Of a stretch of 64,000 nucleotides of DNA, positions 17,320-23,533 are shown in pieces. Source of the DNA: an uncultured Planctomycetaceae bacterium (GTDB lineage: Bacteria > Planctomycetota > SZUA-567); NCBI GenBank assembly GCA_964457365.1, contig CAYWFP010000006.1, positions 13,329 to 77,328 of the forward strand, in the 5' to 3' direction. The translations under genes and the position numbers were made by a program. The notes under the pieces are model-generated. The model did not search any database. It was not told the origin of the DNA and saw only the letters and a program-made list of their open reading frames with translations. Within the stretch, counting starts at the first letter, position 1, and each line of letters starts with the position of its first letter.

Positions 17320-17491
17320 ATCCCGTTCATCCCGCTTGACCATGCGTTTGATGCAACGGACTCGCTTTTTTGCCGGCGAAAACCTTTTCGCCCGGCAATG
17401 CGTTTTGACTTCGCCCGAATTCCCGGTATAGTATAGCCGCGCGGCGTGGGGGCGGGCGTCGATCCCAGACAAGGCGGCCTGCGTGATCCGG

Positions 17492-18541
17492 ATGAACGAG
17501 GAGACGACCGCGATGAGCGCGCGGTGGACCGAGAAGGACGCCGGCGGCACCTCCCTGCGCGACCGGACGCTGGCGGAGTTACGCCGGCAGCGCGGCGCGG
17601 CTTCCGGCGCGGATCTGGCCGGCATCGACCTCGCCGGCGAGGATTTGAGCGACATGCACCTCTCGGGGGTGGATCTGCGCCACGCCAACCTCTCCCACGC
17701 GGTGCTGAGCGGGGTCGACCTCTCCTTCGCCGACCTCTCCGGCGCCAATCTCTTCCAGGCCCGGCTCGACCGCGCGGAGCTCCTGGGCGCGAACCTCGGC
17801 GGCAGCGACTGCCGCGAATGCACGGGCACCGGCGTCGGCCTCGGCGGGGCGGACCTCTCGCGCGCGGGCTTCTTCGGCGCGCGCCTGGAACGCTCCACCC
17901 TGACCAAGGCCAACCTGCACGCGGCCGATTTCCGCGGCGCCAGCCTGCAGCACTGCCGCGTCCGCGAGGCCGACCTGACCGAGGTCGACTTCACCGGCGC
18001 GGACCTGCAGTTCGCCGACCTCACCGCCAGCGACGTGTACAAGGCGGTGCTGAACAACGCCGACCTGCGCGAAACGAGACTGCATGATCTGAAACGCTAT
18101 TACAGCGCCCGGTGGCTCAACACCGATATCCGCCACACCAATTTCTGCGGCACGTACCTGCTGCGCCGGTATATCGTCGACGAGAACTACCTCCACGAGT
18201 TCCGCAACAGCGACGGCCTGCGCTACGCCCTCTACTGGGCCTGGTGGATCACCTCCGACTGCGGGCGGAGCCTGTCGCGCTGGGCGGCCTGGACGGCCGG
18301 CATCGCGCTGCTCTTCGCCGTCGTCTACTCCTTCATGGAGATCGACTACGGCGGCCACCCGACGTGGTTCTCCACGGTGTACTTCAGCATCGTCACGATG
18401 ACGACCCTCGGTTACGGCGACGTGGTGCCCTCCTCGACCGCGGCGCAGGTGGTGGCCACCGTCGAGGTGATCCTCGGCTATCTGGCACTGGGTGGGGTGC
18501 TCTCCATCTTCGCCAACAAGATGGGCCGGCGCGCGGACTGA
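17492..18541 (+). CDS. Pentapeptide-repeat domain fused to two-TM potassium-channel pore domain
   Basis: Tandem A(D/N)LxxA(D/N)L pentapeptide repeats over about 200 aa, then two TM helices flanking the selectivity filter TTLGYGD. An alternative GTG start lies at 17483. Confidence 0.8.
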   Translation: MNEETTAMSARWTEKDAGGTSLRDRTLAELRRQRGAASGADLAGIDLAGEDLSDMHLSGVDLRHANLSHAVLSGVDLSFADLSGANLFQARLDRAELLGANLGGSDCRECTGTGVGLGGADLSRAGFFGARLERSTLTKANLHAADFRGASLQHCRVREADLTEVDFTGADLQFADLTASDVYKAVLNNADLRETRLHDLKRYYSARWLNTDIRHTNFCGTYLLRRYIVDENYLHEFRNSDGLRYALYWAWWITSDCGRSLSRWAAWTAGIALLFAVVYSFMEIDYGGHPTWFSTVYFSIVTMTTLGYGDVVPSSTAAQVVATVEVILGYLALGGVLSIFANKMGRRAD

Positions 18542-18572: not shown

Positions 18573-19427
18573 ATGTTCGAGTTCTTCAAACGGCTCCGCG
18601 TCGACCCGAAAGCGCGCATGCGCGAGGTGCTCGGCGAGTTCAAGCTGCCGACGTTCCCGCAGGTGGTGATGAAGGCGCTCGGCAAGATCCGCGAGCCCGG
18701 CGTCTCCGCGCGCGAGGTCGGCGAGATCATCGGCACCGACCCGGGGCTTTCGCTGCAGATCTTCAAGATCGTCAACTCCGCGGCCTTCCAGACGCGGCAC
18801 AAGATCACCGACATCAACCAGGCCGTGGCGCTGATGGGCATGTCCAGCCTCGAGGCGCTGCTGCTCTCGGTCGCCGTCGGCAACCAGCTCCCGCGCACGA
18901 GCGGCCAGTATTACGACTACAAGGTCTTCTGGCGCGCGGCGATGCAGCGCGCGGCGCTGGCGAGCTCCTTCTCCTCGGTCGTCTGCCCCAGCCGCAAGAT
19001 GGAGAGCTTCACCGCGGCGCTGCTGCAGGACATGGCCATCCCCTTCCTGGTCAAACAGCAGGCCGGCAAGTACATCCCGGTGCTCGACTCCTGGCGCCGC
19101 GAGGCCGGCACCGACCTGGCCAGGCTCGAACGCGAGCGTTTCGAGTGGGACCACGCCGAGGTGGCCACCTGGCTCTGCGACGAGTGGTCGCTCCCGGAGA
19201 CCATCAGCATGGCCATCGGCGAGCATCACGGCAGCCTCGACCTCGGGGGCCGGTGCCCCATGCCCGTGCGCGTCGTGAACTGCGTCCGCGACTTCGAGAG
19301 CAACAGCGGTATCGACGAGGTGACTGACCGCGCGCCGGAAGAGCTGAAGATCGAGAAGGAGAAGGTCAAGGTCCTCGTCGACGAGAGTCTCGAAATCGCC
19401 GAGGACCTGTTCAAGCTGTTTCGCTGA
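18573..19427 (+). CDS. HDOD (HD-related output domain) protein
   Basis: Start MFEFFKRL with AGGAAAAGGG RBS. The HDOD pattern fits (FPQVVMKALGKIREPGVSAREVGEIIGTDPGLSLQIFKIVNSAAFQ). Confidence 0.75.
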   Translation: MFEFFKRLRVDPKARMREVLGEFKLPTFPQVVMKALGKIREPGVSAREVGEIIGTDPGLSLQIFKIVNSAAFQTRHKITDINQAVALMGMSSLEALLLSVAVGNQLPRTSGQYYDYKVFWRAAMQRAALASSFSSVVCPSRKMESFTAALLQDMAIPFLVKQQAGKYIPVLDSWRREAGTDLARLERERFEWDHAEVATWLCDEWSLPETISMAIGEHHGSLDLGGRCPMPVRVVNCVRDFESNSGIDEVTDRAPEELKIEKEKVKVLVDESLEIAEDLFKLFR

Positions 19428-19492
19428 AGCGGCCGGCATCGATGCCGTCGAACGGTTTCTCCAAACGCGCGGCCCTCGGCGAAGACGGATAG

Positions 19493-20350
19493 TCAGCGGC
19501 CACCCGCCGCCCACGCCAGCAGGCTCAGCACGCCCAGCCCGTAATACGTGTACTCCGCGTCCGGCCCCGGATCGCGGGCGCTGCCGGCGAAGCCGCCGCC
19601 GGCACATGCCAGTCCGCGCGCAAACCGCCCCAGCGGCGCTAGCCTGAGCGCCCGCATGGCCCCCGCCTCATGCAGGGCCGTCAGCGCCGTGAAGCTGCTG
19701 AGCAGGTCGCCCGCCGGTACCGCCGGCGTAGCCCGGAAGCCCCCGTCCCCGGTCTGCTGCGCAGCCAGAAACGCCGTGCCCGCCTCGACCCACTCCGGCG
19801 GCGTCTCGTCCAGCCGTACCAGCACGCTCAGCGCCGCGGCGGTGGCATTGGTCTGCGGCAGGCTCGTCTCCTCACTGCGGCGGAAACCGCCCGCGGACGC
19901 GCGCAACGCGCCCAGCGCCGCCAGAAGCGTTTCCTCCGCCGGCCTCTCTTCGTGCAGCAGTTCCAGGCAGAGACTGCCGAGGAAGACGGCGTACGCGTTG
20001 GGCTTCGCCAATGCTTCTTGCAGCAGATACCGCGCCGGCGTCTCCGGCAGCGGCAGGCCCAGCATCGCCGCGCCGTCGAGCAGGCAGTAGCGGTCGACCA
20101 GCGTCGCCGCCGTCTGCTTCCGGAGGTACTCGCCCGCCCGGGCGAGGCGTGCCGGATCGGGTGTCGCCGGCGCCGCGCAGAGGTGCAACGCCCGCAGGGC
20201 GAAACGGGTGTAATACAGGTCGCTCCCGCCTTGCGGTCCCCGGAAGCCGCCGTCGTCCTGTTGCTGCGCGTGAAGAAACGCCGCGTGACCCTGGCGGAAT
20301 GCCGCGGGCAGGGCGCCCGCACCGGCGATGATCGCCTCCGGCCACCTCAC
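19493..20350 (-). CDS. Prenyltransferase/squalene-oxidase-repeat (alpha/alpha toroid, terpene-cyclase beta-domain-like) protein, stand-alone about 285 aa
   Basis: Repeated xxDGGF(R) motifs (QQQDDGGFRG, GGFRRSEETS, QQTGDGGFRA, AGGGFAGS). GTG start at 20350 overlaps the upstream TGA stop (GTGA). The 877-aa ORF 19493..22126 is not one gene. Confidence 0.65.
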   Translation of the reverse strand: MRWPEAIIAGAGALPAAFRQGHAAFLHAQQQDDGGFRGPQGGSDLYYTRFALRALHLCAAPATPDPARLARAGEYLRKQTAATLVDRYCLLDGAAMLGLPLPETPARYLLQEALAKPNAYAVFLGSLCLELLHEERPAEETLLAALGALRASAGGFRRSEETSLPQTNATAAALSVLVRLDETPPEWVEAGTAFLAAQQTGDGGFRATPAVPAGDLLSSFTALTALHEAGAMRALRLAPLGRFARGLACAGGGFAGSARDPGPDAEYTYYGLGVLSLLAWAAGGR

Positions 20351-22050
20351 CGCGCGTCGCCTAGAATCAGCCGCGCCAGCCGCCGCAGCAGTTCGGCCAG
20401 ATCGGCCTCGCCCAGTTCGCCCGCCAGTCCCAGCGCCCGCCGCCGGTACCGGTCCATCAACTCGCGCGCCTGCTCGAAGGCCCCCGTGGATTCGTACAGG
20501 TAGGCCCGTTCCTCCAGAAACTCCGCGGCGCTCATGCAGTCGCAGTACGGTTCGTGCAGCCGCGCCGCCTGTTCGCCATTCGCGTTCTCCAGCGCCAGCA
20601 GGTGCGGCAGCGTCGGCCGCCCGGCGATGGCGTCGCGGCCGTCGCGGATGTGGCCGTCGGCGCCGCGGTCCCAGTCCTCCAGGTCGTCCTGGATCTGGTA
20701 CGCCACCCCCACCGCGCGCGCGTACGCCTTCAGCACCTGCTCGTCGAAATCCGCCTCTGCCGCGCGCAGCCCGGTATACAGCGCCGCGTGAAACGCCGGC
20801 GCGGTCTTGCCGGCATAGATCGCCAGCACGTCCAGCGGCCGCATCTGCCGCACCCCGCCGCGCTGCCAGGCCAGTTCCGCCCCTTGCCACCGGCAGAGCC
20901 GCAGGTGCGCGTCCGCGAGCAGCGCCACGATATCCCCCGCCGCGGCCGCGCCCAGAGCGCCGCGCGCCTCCGCGACCAACCGGTACCCCAGCCCCACCAG
21001 CGCATCGCCGACGTTGATCGCCTGCGCCACGCCGTGCGCGCGATGGAGCGTCGGCCTGCCGTAGCGCGTGGCGTCGTCGTCCTCGATATCGTCGTGCACC
21101 AGGCTGGCCTTGTGCAGCGCCTCGATGGCCACGGCCAGGCGGCAGATTTCGTCGGGCAGCGTCGGCGGCGTCCCCGTCGCCAGCGCCGTGCCGCCGTCTC
21201 GGCCGACGAGGTGGCACGCCAGGACGGCAAACGGCCGCAGCCGCTTGCCGCCGCGCCGCAGCCAGGCGAACGCGGTCGTCTCGGCGAATCGCGCCGGCCC
21301 CGGCGGGTCGCCGTCCTCGACTTCCAGCGCGCCCGCGAGCAGCGGGATGAGCCGCTTCGGCGCGAACAAAGCCCGCGTGTGCCGCAGGAGCGGCAGCAGG
21401 CTCGCGTGTGCGGTCGGGATCGCGTCGGTGCTGAGCCGCAGCAGTTCGCGCAGCCGCGCGAGATCCGTCTCCGTATCCCTGCAGCCGTCTTTCAGCAACG
21501 GCACCGCCAGATGCGGCAGCCCCAGCGCGCTGACTCTGGGGTACGCCTTCTCGAGCGAGTCCATGCACGCCACGCCGAGCACCCCCTCGGCCTCTTCGGC
21601 CAGCACCGCCTTCAGGATCGACGGCGCGCCCTCCTCGATGCGCACGCGGTAGCCCAGCGCTACGGCTTCCTTGCGGATTCCGCTCAGGTCGCACGCGCCG
21701 CAGCCCGCGCAGGCGAAGGATTCGCCCGCGTAGCCGCCCTTGCACGCGGCGCTGTCGCGCAGGCAGTGCGGCAGCAACAGCAGGCGCTTGCCGCACGGCA
21801 GCGCGGCGAACGCCTCGCGCCAGTAGGCGTTGTTCAACTCGATCAGCAGAAACCCGAGCGCGCTCTCGGGCAGATTCAGCGCCGCGAGCATATCGCGCCC
21901 CGCCGTTTCCAACGTCTCGCGATCGAGCGTCTGTGGCAGGGACGCCTGCGCGGCAACCTCGGCGATGCGGCGGCGGATGTGCGGATCGGCGGGGATCTCG
22001 TGCGCGGCCGGGGCGCCGGGGCGCGCCGTGTCGTTGGAGATATCGCCCAT
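20347..22050 (-). CDS. DUF116-like Cys-rich domain fused to trans-polyprenyl diphosphate synthase
   Basis: The N-terminal about 260 aa carries PHCLR...C..CAGCGAC (DUF116-like). The C-terminal half has the prenyl synthase aspartate motifs DDIEDDDATRYGRPTLH (FARM) and QIQDDLEDW (SARM). ATG at 22050 has a GGAG RBS. Confidence 0.75.
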   Translation of the reverse strand: MGDISNDTARPGAPAAHEIPADPHIRRRIAEVAAQASLPQTLDRETLETAGRDMLAALNLPESALGFLLIELNNAYWREAFAALPCGKRLLLLPHCLRDSAACKGGYAGESFACAGCGACDLSGIRKEAVALGYRVRIEEGAPSILKAVLAEEAEGVLGVACMDSLEKAYPRVSALGLPHLAVPLLKDGCRDTETDLARLRELLRLSTDAIPTAHASLLPLLRHTRALFAPKRLIPLLAGALEVEDGDPPGPARFAETTAFAWLRRGGKRLRPFAVLACHLVGRDGGTALATGTPPTLPDEICRLAVAIEALHKASLVHDDIEDDDATRYGRPTLHRAHGVAQAINVGDALVGLGYRLVAEARGALGAAAAGDIVALLADAHLRLCRWQGAELAWQRGGVRQMRPLDVLAIYAGKTAPAFHAALYTGLRAAEADFDEQVLKAYARAVGVAYQIQDDLEDWDRGADGHIRDGRDAIAGRPTLPHLLALENANGEQAARLHEPYCDCMSAAEFLEERAYLYESTGAFEQARELMDRYRRRALGLAGELGEADLAELLRRLARLILGDAR

Positions 22051-22247
22051 ACCGGCTCCTCGCCCCTCTTCGGGAGTATAGCCGACGCCGGAGCAGGGCG
22101 CAAGGGCGGGGACCGGAAGGCTGCAAGGCCAGCCGCAGCAGGAGGATGACGGTGTGCCGGGTATCATGAACTCCGGAGTTTACATCGGCAATGCGCCAAC
22201 AGCGTTTGACTCACGCATTCCGGGATCGACTCCGTCGGTATCCCGGT

Positions 22248-22493
22248 TTACGCCTCTTCCTCACCCCGCTCGTAGGTCATGGCGATGCGCAGGGCGATCA
22301 ATCCGGCCATCAGCACGGCGAAGACGATCGCGGCCGTGGTCGACACCATGACCTGCCAGCCGTAGGCGGTCGGAATCACGATTGGCAGCAGCGGCAGCAG
22401 GTTGGTCAGCGACGCGTCCGCTTTCGCCCGTTTCAAACCGTAATGCATCGCCACCGCGATGATAAGAGCGCTCGCTCCGAGGGTCGGCAGCAT
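22248..22493 (-). CDS. Hypothetical small membrane protein (81 aa, two TM)
   Basis: C-terminal portion of ORF 22248..23441 starting at MLPTLGAS. The remainder of that ORF overlaps trpD in another frame and is rejected. Confidence 0.35.
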   Translation of the reverse strand: MLPTLGASALIIAVAMHYGLKRAKADASLTNLLPLLPIVIPTAYGWQVMVSTTAAIVFAVLMAGLIALRIAMTYERGEEEA

Positions 22494-22522
22494 GCGTCGA
22501 TTCCTCGCATCGTTTTGCGAAT

Positions 22523-23533
22523 CTACCCCCCGCTCACATCCACCAGCTTCGCCAGCGTTTCCTGCGCCCTGCCGGTGTCGATGGTTTCGGACGCGAGGTC
22601 GATCCCCGCCTGCAGGTCCTCGGCCTTGTCCGCCACGTACAGCGCCGCGCCGGCGTTCAGGAGCACGATGTCGCGCGCCGGGCCGGTCCTGCCCTGCAGC
22701 ACCTCGCGGATCACCCGCGCGCTCTCCTGCGGGCTCTGCACACGCAGCTTCTCGATGGGTGTGCGCGACAGGCCGAAGTCGTCGGGCGCCAGGACGTACT
22801 CGTTGATCTCGCCGCCCTTGAGCTCCGCGACGGTGGTCTCCTCGCCGATGGTGATCTCGTCGGCGCCGTCGTGGCCGTGGACGACCAGCGCGTGCTGCGA
22901 GCCCAGTTCCTTCAGGACGCTCGCCATCACCGGCGTGAGGGTCGAGGCGTAGACGCCCAGCAGTTGATGCTTCGCGCCGGCGGGGTTGGTCAGGGGCCCG
23001 AGGATGTTGAAGACCGTGCGGATGCCGATCTCGCGGCGCGGGCCGATGGCGTGCTTCATCGCCCCGTGCAGCAGCGGCGCGAAGAGAAAGCCGATTCCCG
23101 CCTCGGCGATGCAGCGCTCCACCGTGGCCGTGTCGGCCTCGATGTTGACGCCGAGTTCCTTCAGCACGTCGGCCGCGCCCGAGGTCGAGCTGACCGAGCG
23201 GTTGCCGTGCTTGGCCACGCGCGCGCCGCCCGCGGCCGCGACGAGGGCCGCGGCGGTGGAGACGTTGAAAGTGCCGCGCTCGTCGCCGCCGGTGCCGACG
23301 ACGTCGATGAAGAGATCCTCGCCGGCGTCGATGCGGGTGGCCTTCTCGCGCATCACCGCGGCGAAACCGGCGATCTCGGCCACGGTCTCGCCCTTGGACC
23401 GCAGCGCCGTCAAGAGGCAGGCGATCTGCGCGTCGGTGCACGCGCCGGACATGACCTCGTCCATCACCGCCTGCGCCTGCGCCTGCGACAGGTCCTCGCC
23501 CTCGACCACCTGCTTGATCGCTTCGCGGATCAT
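22523..23533 (-). CDS. trpD: Anthranilate phosphoribosyltransferase
   Basis: 336 aa with TrpD motifs VVGTGGDERGTFNVSTAAALVAAAGGARVAKHGNR and ILGPLTNPAGA. Confidence 0.95.
   Translation of the reverse strand: MIREAIKQVVEGEDLSQAQAQAVMDEVMSGACTDAQIACLLTALRSKGETVAEIAGFAAVMREKATRIDAGEDLFIDVVGTGGDERGTFNVSTAAALVAAAGGARVAKHGNRSVSSTSGAADVLKELGVNIEADTATVERCIAEAGIGFLFAPLLHGAMKHAIGPRREIGIRTVFNILGPLTNPAGAKHQLLGVYASTLTPVMASVLKELGSQHALVVHGHDGADEITIGEETTVAELKGGEINEYVLAPDDFGLSRTPIEKLRVQSPQESARVIREVLQGRTGPARDIVLLNAGAALYVADKAEDLQAGIDLASETIDTGRAQETLAKLVDVSGG

Follow-up and report, generated by a model that had tools for sequence, protein, structure and literature searches.

The alpha/alpha toroid with Prenyltrans repeats (PF00432) is found in the beta subunits of the eukaryotic protein prenyltransferases (GGTase-I, FTase, and RabGGTase/GGTase-III beta), and stand-alone beta-type toroids of ~300–370 aa occur in terpenoid clusters as monodomain class II cyclases, such as MstE (PDB 6sbb) and the myxobacterial proteins 8pak and 8paj. 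Class II cyclases, including SHC, OSC, CPS, DMS, and MstE, use a DxDD or DxD motif as general acid. In the Bacillus sesquarterpene pathway, which consists of a medium/long-chain trans-prenyl synthase (HepS/HepT), YtpB, and SqhC, an SHC homologue cyclizes a polyprenoid other than squalene (PMC7306690). Planctomycetes make squalene via HpnCDE, and the genomic context of the planctomycete SHC-like clade, which keeps the catalytic residues, suggests precursors other than squalene (PMC7306690); the function of this major cyclase clade, including its substrate and product, is listed as unknown in two phylogenetic studies (Santana-Molina et al. 2020; Mol Biol Evol 2025, msaf203). The DUF116 domain (COG1852, arCOG02078), whose CxxCxxC motif has been described (PMC5898192), was predicted to be metal-binding and electron-transferring by Makarova et al. 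2015, who also remarked on its fusion to polyprenyl synthetase. Archaeal members carry two N-terminal transmembrane helices and are encoded near sulfite/nitrite reductase or ArsA-like genes.

Here, we analyzed a pair of genes in which a DUF116-synthase fusion is followed by a stand-alone toroid. The window, i.e., the whole stretch of DNA under analysis, is 64 kb long, and the features of the pair within it are as follows.

20347..22050, (−) strand: gene 1 (FUS), fusion of DUF116 and a trans-isoprenyl diphosphate synthase, 567 aa plus stop (ORF, start codon, Pfam)
19493..20350, (−) strand: gene 2 (TOR), stand-alone alpha6/alpha6 toroid of the prenyltransferase-beta type, 285 aa plus stop
22056..22061, (−) strand: Shine-Dalgarno-like GAGGAG, 5 nt 5′ of the ATG at 22050 (sequence)
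20347..20350, (−) strand: GTGA overlap of the gene 2 start with the gene 1 stop (sequence)
21442..21885, (−) strand: DUF116 domain, residues 56–203 (Pfam; flavodoxin/Rossmann-like fold in the AF2 model)
21691..21771, (−) strand: Cys-rich insert P94-H-C96 ... C114-A-G-C117-G-A-C120 (CxxCxxC), candidate Fe-S or metal site (sequence, conservation, PMC5898192)
20542..21261, (−) strand: polyprenyl synthase domain, residues 264–503 (Pfam; PDB relatives)
21079..21093, (−) strand: FARM DDIED, residues 320–324, with an invariant HKASLVH before and an invariant R-Y-G after it
20674..20688, (−) strand: SARM DDLED, residues 455–459 (sequence)
19832..19855, (−) strand: TOR motif Q166-T-N168-A-T-A-A-A at the position of the SHC DxDDTA, without an acidic residue (register inferred from the repeat motif)
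19688..19708, (−) strand: TOR motif D215-L-L217-S-S-F-T, aligned with RabGGTase beta D238-V-C240-Y-S-W-W (HMMER alignment), Cys ligand replaced by Leu
19538..19561, (−) strand: TOR motif D264-A-E266-Y267-T-Y-Y270-G, aligned with RabGGTase beta D-P-F-H290-T-L-F-G, His ligand replaced by Tyr

A public gene call made independently on this DNA returned both proteins unchanged, at 567 and 285 aa, with the gene 1 product matching the publicly called 567-aa protein at 100%. The ATG at 22167 was considered as an alternative start of gene 1 and rejected in favor of that at 22050, which agrees with the N-termini of homologues, the Shine-Dalgarno sequence, and the public gene call. The GTG of gene 2 (20350–20348) overlaps the TGA of gene 1 (20349–20347), and through this GTGA overlap the two genes are translationally coupled. 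Scanning positions 19200–22700 for promoters and terminators gave no signal above the shuffled background. The gene positions, the two-gene layout, and the overlap proposed in a first-pass annotation of this DNA were all borne out by the sequence and the public gene call, and its assignment of DUF116, polyprenyl synthase, and toroid domains holds as well, with a Pfam HMM match in each case.

The DUF116 match in gene 1 (PF01976; E = 7.7e-30; 103.8 bits versus a cutoff of 25) covers HMM positions 8–154 of 155 and includes the motif PHCLR...CAGCGAC. Seven Cys residues (C96, C103, C114, C117, C120, C162, and C190) are invariant in sets of 26 and 45 aligned fusions and lie, in the AF2 model, partly in the insert and partly along the C-terminal sheet edge. 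Judging from its sequence, the domain most likely holds an Fe-S or other metal centre that supplies or senses electrons. DUF116 also occurs as a stand-alone gene in a Bipolaricaulota cluster, beside ispH, SHC, hpnH, and a polyprenyl synthetase gene.

The synthase domain matched polyprenyl_synt (PF00348) with an E-value of 2.7e-41, and among PDB entries it is closest to GGPP, FPP, and octaprenyl-PP synthases. It proved slightly more similar to short-chain (C15–C20) than to long-chain enzymes in NCBIfam and PDB comparisons and reached none of the named NCBIfam equivalogs (FPPS, GGPPS, HepT, IspB, etc.), the best scoring 123 bits versus a cutoff of 450. Both aspartate motifs, DDIED and DDLED, are intact as first annotated, the former being invariant across the fusion family, and GGKRLR and KT are present in the domain. 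Upstream of the FARM, Ala occupies position −5 and Ser position −4; since such small residues leave elongation at C15/C20 unblocked, the gene 1 product is probably an all-trans polyprenyl diphosphate of C20 or longer. HepT, too, has small residues of this kind (Ala-Ser) ahead of its FARM. Across the family, the FARM is followed by R-Y-G, where R-R-G is usual, and the SARM mostly reads NDLxD (103/118), whereas gene 1 keeps DDLED; the residue after the SARM is Lys in 98/118 relatives and His in gene 1. Because RYG is family-wide and NDLxD is present in most relatives, ordinary chain elongation is not certain for the family.

Gene 2 matched Prenyltrans (PF00432; E = 1.4e-11; 44.9 bits versus a cutoff of 26.5), and the cyclase HMMs run on it all remained below threshold (SQHop_cyclase_N, 21.9 bits, and SQHop_cyclase_C, 12.1 bits, with cutoffs of ~26; TIGR01787, 14 bits versus a cutoff of 322). 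Structure comparison placed the toroid fold clearly closer to the prenyltransferase beta subunits than to the cyclases. A LanC-like or TED-like toroid was rejected on account of far weaker matches; a PDB match to AprG was weak, and a literature search on AprG returned unrelated papers only. A canonical hopanoid/squalene cyclase was rejected for want of DxDD: the 285-aa protein contains no DxDD or DxD anywhere, and the family reads Q/G-T-N-A/P-T-A-A at the position of the SHC DxDDTA. In-register alignment of the family (n = 106) further revealed that the zinc ligands Asp-Cys-His of RabGGTase beta have become Asp-Leu-Tyr, with D215 kept in gene 2, L217 found in 103/106 sequences, and Y267 in 105/106. 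Nor does the gene 2 alignment show conservation of the RabGGTase beta residues that bind diphosphate (Arg, Lys, and His).

These observations divide the earlier proposal that the toroid cyclizes or transfers the prenyl chain: the two-gene module and its non-canonical terpenoid context stand, but the chemistry is not supported, with the zinc Cys/His lost and no DxDD present. The proposal had also depended on a conserved catalytic or metal site in the toroid; the known sites are absent, yet the family has an invariant polar set composed of Y46, Y47, Y120, N168, E266, Y267, and Y270. The invariant E266, N168, and the Tyr cluster could represent a new active site. Conserved toroid residues lie mostly within the generic repeat motif.

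Both families, the fusion with thousands of members and the toroid with ~1050 clusters at 50% identity, are present in Planctomycetota, Verrucomicrobiota, and Armatimonadota. Armatimonadota, Planctomycetota, Verrucomicrobiota, and Victivallales all have loci in the FUS-TOR order, frequently with the stop codon overlapping the start codon, and the junctions in the homologous loci L001, L003, L088, and L089 are similarly tight (−1, −4, −14, and +2 nt). Among GTDB species genomes, FUS lies immediately 5′ of TOR in 13 of 65 toroid loci and no more than 8 kb upstream of it in 21/47 loci; among metagenomic contigs, TOR lies immediately 3′ of FUS in 9 of 55 fusion loci and anywhere downstream in 13 of the 27 loci whose flank measures 6.5 kb or more. 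The arrangement is looser in many Pirellulaceae, where either 5 kb separates the toroid gene from the fusion or no fusion occurs within 8 kb of it. The closest relative (54% identity) has the order FUS-TOR-rSAM-ABC-FtsX, and all three fusion homologues picked solely for their long contigs (3/3) have the order Fer4-rSAM-SHC-like-(PQQ)-FUS-TOR. Comparative sequence evidence of this kind indicates that FUS and TOR form a genuine functional module, and their products probably associate in a physical complex.

In 43 of 48 loci, the gene directly upstream of FUS is SHC-like and encodes a two-domain protein of 580–675 aa that retains GGVPD-x-DDT (DxDDT). This protein is only remotely related to true SHC (138 bits versus a cutoff of 431; E = 2.6e-19 to the A. 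acidocaldarius SHC); its taxonomy and properties agree with those of the published SHC-like clade of PVC and FCB bacteria, and it probably belongs to this clade (Santana-Molina et al. 2020; msaf203). Fusion loci elsewhere often also encode a B12-type radical SAM protein and a ferredoxin-like protein. The canonical hopanoid enzymes HpnH, HpnJ, and HpnP were rejected as identities for the former, whose NCBIfam matches were to TIGR04013-like B12/rSAM models and far below the cutoff. On the other side of the pair, an ABC ATPase is among the two genes after TOR in 39/75 loci, and a LolD-like ATPase (252 bits to the LolD model) together with a duplicated FtsX permease follows the toroid in about half of the loci; both fall below the LolD and LolCE cutoffs and resemble DevA/DevC glycolipid exporters too. 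Several Armatimonadota loci have a GT4 gene next to the toroid, and TOR and GT4 are naturally fused in a single protein (P0182), which could be a gene-calling artefact. A literature search returned no description of the Fer4/rSAM/SHC-like/FUS/TOR cluster and no published characterization of the toroid family.

The window itself carries the two-gene core only, with an 81-aa ORF and trpD upstream of FUS and der nearby; tblastn found no SHC-like cyclase, radical SAM protein, ferredoxin-like protein, GT4, or adjacent exporter in its 64 kb. Because the partner genes are missing from the window, the pathway context is taken from other genomes, and the window serves as an example of the system rather than as the best locus in which to study it.

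In the reading that we favor, and that we hold with about even confidence, the pair is a coupled module at the core of a conserved terpenoid-lipid pathway shared by Planctomycetota, Verrucomicrobiota, and Armatimonadota, in which gene 1 makes a prenyl chain and the toroid carries it. Gene 1 would produce an all-trans polyprenyl diphosphate, with DUF116 supplying or sensing electrons via its Fe-S or metal centre, and gene 2 would encode a cytoplasmic barrel of the prenyltransferase-beta kind whose central funnel binds the hydrophobic prenyl product. The toroid would then hand this product to downstream enzymes, neither cyclizing it nor attaching it to a protein cysteine; a carrier role is proposed because the zinc site and DxDD are missing. 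The partners in most other genomes would be the DxDD SHC-like class II cyclase, the B12-type radical SAM protein, the ferredoxin-like protein, the GT4, and the LolD/FtsX-type exporter. What the analysis shows directly are the identities of the domains, the states of the motifs, and the conservation of both the pair and its wider neighborhood; the enzymatic activity, the chain length, the DUF116 metal, the carrier role of the toroid, and the final product are inferred. A more specific version, which we offer tentatively as a possibility with less than even prospects, is that FUS, TOR, and the SHC-like cyclase together make cyclic polyprenoid (glyco)lipids that do not originate from squalene, with the zinc-less toroid presenting the chain to the cyclase or glycosyltransferase and the DUF116 Fe-S centre linking electron supply with the synthesis of isoprenoids.

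Several other explanations were weighed against this carrier reading. The toroid may itself be the catalyst, either as a monodomain class II cyclase that uses an unconventional acid (e.g., the invariant E266 in the funnel) or as a zinc-independent prenyltransferase acting on the synthase product. We consider this unlikely: the protein contains neither DxDD nor DxD and has lost the zinc Cys and His, the Arg and Lys with which RabGGTase beta binds diphosphate are not retained in the alignment, the fold is clearly nearer to the prenyltransferase beta subunits, the conserved residues lie mostly in the generic repeat motif, and in most related loci a genuine DxDD cyclase is already encoded next to the synthase. 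Bacterial protein lipidation, in which the toroid would prenylate proteins and a Lol-like ABC/FtsX machine would extract them from the membrane, draws on the same structural kinship with protein prenyltransferase beta subunits and on the LolD-like ATPase and duplicated FtsX permease encoded after the toroid in roughly every second locus. It appears highly improbable, however, since the thiol-activating zinc site is gone, no alpha subunit with PPTA repeats was found in any of the annotated neighborhoods examined, and the ATPase and permease score below the LolD/LolCE cutoffs with a resemblance to DevA/DevC glycolipid exporters.

Two further alternatives concern the synthase. The family-wide change from RRG to RYG and the NDLxDW that replaces DDxxD in 103/118 relatives would suit an irregular or reductive coupling enzyme, with DUF116 as the reductase and a non-squalene hydrocarbon as the product offered to the SHC-like cyclase. 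Chrysanthemyl diphosphate synthase, an FPPS relative that performs irregular coupling, is typified by an Asn in first place in its second motif, and the fusion of a redox domain to the synthase and the lack of any squalene synthase gene seen in the conserved cluster point in the same direction. Gene 1 nevertheless has the canonical DDLED and keeps GGKRLR, the His before the FARM, KT, and other elongation motifs; a DUF116 reductase is without precedent, and HpnCDE supply squalene in Planctomycetes (PMC7306690), which leaves this alternative decidedly unlikely. It is very unlikely, too, that the fusion is a housekeeping FPP/GGPP synthase and the toroid an unrelated neighbor retained as a synteny relic. 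The housekeeping genes that surround the pair (trpD upstream, der nearby), the absence of further terpenoid genes from the window, and the very large, broadly spread fusion family are consistent with such a role, but in at least three or four phyla whose flanks otherwise differ, the two genes again stand in this order with stop and start codons overlapping, and the SHC-like gene adjoining the fusion in 43/48 loci is a pathway-specific pattern.

If the version with cyclic polyprenoid (glyco)lipids is true, a substrate and a pathway would be assigned to the SHC-like clade, and bacterial relatives of the eukaryotic protein-prenyltransferase beta subunit would act on lipids. The SHC-like gene adjoins the fusion almost always, and the toroid, B12-type radical SAM, and ferredoxin-like genes frequently, which defines a specific minimal set of genes for heterologous reconstitution. 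The function of the SHC-like clade may also bear on the interpretation of polycyclic terpane biomarkers, a possible consequence raised in the two phylogenetic studies. Of the bacterial proteins seen here, those of the toroid family stand structurally closest to protein-prenyltransferase beta subunits, yet they are without the zinc site.

Compared with the known systems, gene 2 shares the alpha/alpha toroid and Prenyltrans repeats of the protein prenyltransferase beta subunits but is shorter (285 aa versus 330–440 aa), has changed zinc ligands, and is bacterial; its genetic links are to a synthase, a cyclase, and lipid export, not to protein substrates. The monodomain class II cyclases are detectable homologues of gene 2 and resemble it in being stand-alone beta-type toroids; unlike them and the other class II cyclases, gene 2 is without the DxDD/DxD general acid. 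The DUF116 of gene 1 differs from its archaeal counterparts in being soluble and joined to a synthase. The Bacillus sesquarterpene pathway belongs to different phyla and is without DUF116, toroid, radical SAM, and ferredoxin genes, but it resembles the present system in combining a trans-prenyl synthase with an SHC homologue, as FUS is combined with the SHC-like cyclase in other genomes.

Both genes are on the (−) strand of the window (G+C, ~68%), flanked upstream by an 81-aa ORF and trpD and downstream by a convergent HDOD gene:

22050 (ATG) to 20349-20347 (TGA), minus strand: gene 1 (FUS), DUF116-polyprenyl diphosphate synthase fusion, 567 aa, GAGGAG preceding the ATG
20350-20348 (GTG) to 19493, minus strand: gene 2 (TOR), stand-alone alpha/alpha toroid, 285 aa
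22248-22493, minus strand: 81-aa ORF between trpD and FUS, a gene in the public record, no Pfam match

The first-pass annotation had described gene 1 as a DUF116-polyprenyl synthase fusion and gene 2 as a prenyltransferase-repeat protein coupled to it through GTGA, and this observation was confirmed in every detail. Specifically, gene 1 matches Pfam DUF116 at residues 56–203 (E = 7.7e-30), over the full length of the family model, and polyprenyl_synt at residues 264–503 (E = 2.7e-41), and contains all of the motifs quoted, i.e., PHCLR...CAGCGAC and the first (FARM, DDIED) and second (SARM, DDLED) Asp-rich motifs. The GTG start of gene 2 overlaps the TGA of gene 1 in the sequence (GTGA), and gene 2 matches Pfam Prenyltrans (PF00432) above threshold (E = 1.4e-11), with the squalene-hopene cyclase models of Pfam matching below threshold only. 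An ATG at 22167 is mechanically possible as the gene 1 start, but neither homologue N-termini nor the public gene call on this sequence supports it.

Judged by its sequence, the 81-aa ORF resembles a small membrane protein, and it may share a transcript with FUS and TOR. Since tblastn found no cyclase, radical SAM, ferredoxin-like, GT4 glycosyltransferase, thioesterase, FtsX or PIG-L gene in the 64-kb window, it holds the two-gene core only and is a minimal instance of the module, without the cyclase. Two other fusions were observed in the window, the first of which (by precomputed Pfam matches) we judged unusual:

17483-18541, plus strand: pentapeptide repeats with a C-terminal Ion_trans_2 domain (two-TM K+ channel-like), ~342-352 aa
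14290-16521, plus strand: HEAT/HEAT_2 repeats fused to an MFS_1 transporter, ~734-743 aa

Both families are widespread. A word-indexed search returned at least 2782 FUS relatives; all 120 matches listed had the two-domain DUF116-synthase architecture, and those named among them were from Planctomycetota, Verrucomicrobiota and Armatimonadota. An exhaustive profile search yielded 1050 representatives of toroid-family clusters (50% identity) at an E-value of 1e-30 or better, nearly all of them stand-alone proteins of ~300 aa. When one genome per GTDB species was scanned, there were at least 586 TOR matches, mostly in Pirellulaceae, Gemmataceae, Planctomycetaceae, Brocadiaceae, Armatimonadota and Victivallales, cultured strains included.

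Next to these relatives, the TOR of the window is a slightly reduced member and among the shortest (285 aa), lacking ~20 residues (columns ~116–152 of our toroid-family alignment A1), among them one L-P-x-G-G loop that is present in nearly all of the others. Its AlphaFold2 model (39 homologues; pLDDT, 95.5) is an alpha6/alpha6 barrel of 12 to 13 helices. The first-pass annotation had suggested that the toroid cyclizes or transfers a prenyl chain; we looked by alignment for an active-site DxDD or Zn site, and neither is present. In an in-register HMMER alignment, the zinc motif D238-V-C240 of RabGGTase beta corresponds to D215-L-L217 of TOR, and D-P-F-H290-T corresponds to D264-x-E266-Y267-T. 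L217 was found in 103 and Y267 in 105 of 106 distinct family members; the absence of two of the three zinc ligands thus characterizes the family as a whole rather than reflecting local decay. D-x-D is absent from the whole 285-aa sequence, and at the repeat where squalene-hopene cyclases carry DxDDTA (register taken from the repeat motif) the family has Q/G-T-N-A/P-T-A-A. Thus, TOR cannot be placed among the canonical zinc prenyltransferases or among the canonical class II cyclases. Even so, Y46, Y47, Y120, E266, Y267 and Y270 are invariant in the family, and N168 is present in 97/106 members; repeat-motif geometry suggests that several of these residues face the barrel mouth.

In FUS, seven Cys residues (C96, C103, C114, C117, C120, C162 and C190) are invariant among 45 aligned fusions, in agreement with the prediction by Makarova et al. 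2015 (PMC5898192) that DUF116 is flavodoxin-like, binds metal, contains a ferredoxin-type CxxCxxC and takes part in electron transfer. The synthase domain is closest to archaeal, plant and bacterial GGPP and FPP synthases, with octaprenyl synthases slightly less similar, and no NCBIfam equivalog fits it (best score, 123 bits versus a cutoff of 450). Across the fusion family, E-x-L-H-K-A-S-L-V-H-D-D-I-E-D is conserved without exception, and the RRG that usually trails FARM is RYG in all members. Small residues precede FARM (Ala at −5 and Ser at −4), and in trans-prenyltransferases such residues impose no stop at C15 or C20 there; elongation by FUS is therefore predicted not to be halted at either length by the −5/−4 position.

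Genes were called, clustered and annotated in homologous loci fetched from elsewhere, which revealed two recurrent layouts. Type A (Armatimonadota, Verrucomicrobiota and some Planctomycetota) runs from a 4Fe-4S protein (~255–290 aa) through a radical SAM protein (~505 aa; weak, sub-cutoff likeness to TIGR04013-like B12-binding-domain models), a squalene-hopene cyclase-like (SHC-like) gene and sometimes a PQQ-type beta-propeller to FUS and TOR, after which comes either GT4 or an ABC ATPase (LolD-like) and a duplicated FtsX permease of ~1200 aa. This order up to TOR was found in 3/3 FUS homologues chosen solely for long contigs. Type B (Pirellulaceae) comprises SHC-like, FUS, a 182-aa protein and variable transporter genes, then rpsR, a 4HBT thioesterase, TOR, ABC ATPase, FtsX permease and a PIG-L deacetylase. 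The 182-aa protein directly follows FUS, the place of TOR elsewhere, in 21/55 metagenomic loci and matches nothing in Pfam or NCBIfam. In the relative closest to the window's FUS (54% identity), the order is FUS-TOR-radical SAM-ABC-FtsX. Representative features are:

L035:2448-2993 and L021:2772-3314, plus strand: 182-aa protein, conserved
L026:9604-13266 and L035:8907-9572, plus strand: ABC ATPase/FtsX permease, present after TOR in about half of loci

Among the best 80 metagenomic FUS loci, SHC-like lay directly upstream of FUS on the same strand in 43/48 with more than 2 kb upstream, and TOR lay immediately downstream in 9/55 with more than 1.1 kb downstream and anywhere downstream in 13/27 with at least 6.5 kb. 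Among the best 80 TOR loci, FUS was immediately upstream in 13/65 and within 8 kb upstream in 21/47, and an ABC ATPase fell within the next two genes after TOR in 39/75. At one locus (L088:2875-6150), the gene calls split SHC-like into parts of 457 and 135 aa, with an N6_N4_Mtase gene between these and FUS, and the cyclase may be disrupted. GT4 adjoins TOR at a distance of 1 nt in locus L001, and a 759-aa database protein (P0182) joins a toroid (residues 5–311) to GT4, which could be a genuine fusion or the product of a lost stop codon.

FUS and TOR have the identities that their domains indicate, are inherited together and are translationally coupled; most genomes place the pair in a terpenoid-cyclase neighborhood that also connects to genes for glycosylation and export. 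We propose that FUS would use IPP to lengthen an allylic diphosphate into a polyprenyl diphosphate of at least C20 and that DUF116 would hold an Fe-S or other metal center in a redox role. Such a domain might serve in electron relay or as a sensor; a tie to the MEP pathway, through its Fe-S enzymes, or to the neighboring radical SAM enzyme would be speculative. TOR may take the prenyl chain into its funnel and hand it on to a cyclase, glycosyltransferase or exporter. We give this picture as a whole about an even chance, and the carrier role is its weakest step because the argument for it is that known catalytic residues are missing.

With its invariant residues and neither canonical site, TOR might instead be a new kind of catalyst, the idea of the first-pass annotation, which we consider unlikely. 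A non-elongating or irregular-coupling synthase appears quite unlikely. In its favor, the second motif is NDLxDW in 103/118 relatives (e.g., L035:530-2383 and L001:1513-3261), and chrysanthemyl diphosphate synthase likewise has Asn at the first position; against it, the FUS of the window, along with those of L033 and L065, belongs to the minority with canonical DDLED. That the adjacency of FUS and TOR is mere housekeeping is very doubtful; their junctions elsewhere are typically −14 to +2 nt, like that of the window. Finally, a protein-lipidation and Lol-like export system seems highly improbable: against the LolD model, the ATPase after TOR reaches 252 bits, which is below cutoff, and the duplicated permease is ADOP/MacB/DevC-like. 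PIG-L often follows the permease. The proposed elongating synthase with a redox domain and a carrier remains our preferred reading.

Our search of the literature turned up nothing on the toroid family, the zinc-less state of its members or their tight coupling to FUS, nor on the five-gene cluster as a unit or its GT4 and ABC/FtsX links. Already known are the DUF116-synthase fusion, reported in Pirellula staleyi (Psta_0175) (Makarova et al. 2015, PMC5898192), and the odd genomic context of SHC-like genes, which suggests non-squalene precursors for Planctomycete proteins that keep the catalytic residues (Santana-Molina et al. 2020, PMC7306690). A 2025 preprint lists a Bipolaricaulota cluster in which DUF116 is encoded by a gene of its own, with ispH, an SHC, hpnH and a polyprenyl synthetase as neighbors. 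The cyclases beside FUS (580–675 aa) all keep G-(G/A/S)-V-P-D-x-D-D-T, whose DxDDT aligns with D374–D377 of the A. acidocaldarius enzyme, but are related only distantly to true hopene cyclases (138 bits versus the TIGR01507 cutoff of 431; E = 2.6e-19 to 1gsz). We infer, by description rather than by shared accessions, that they are the published SHC-like group, whose function and structure are stressed as unknown in published work, and the module gives experiments a direct way into this acknowledged question. Each domain comes from a known superfamily, and no single one would astonish a specialist; together, FUS and TOR appear to form a terpenoid cluster in which both the synthase and its prenyltransferase-beta-like partner are unusual.
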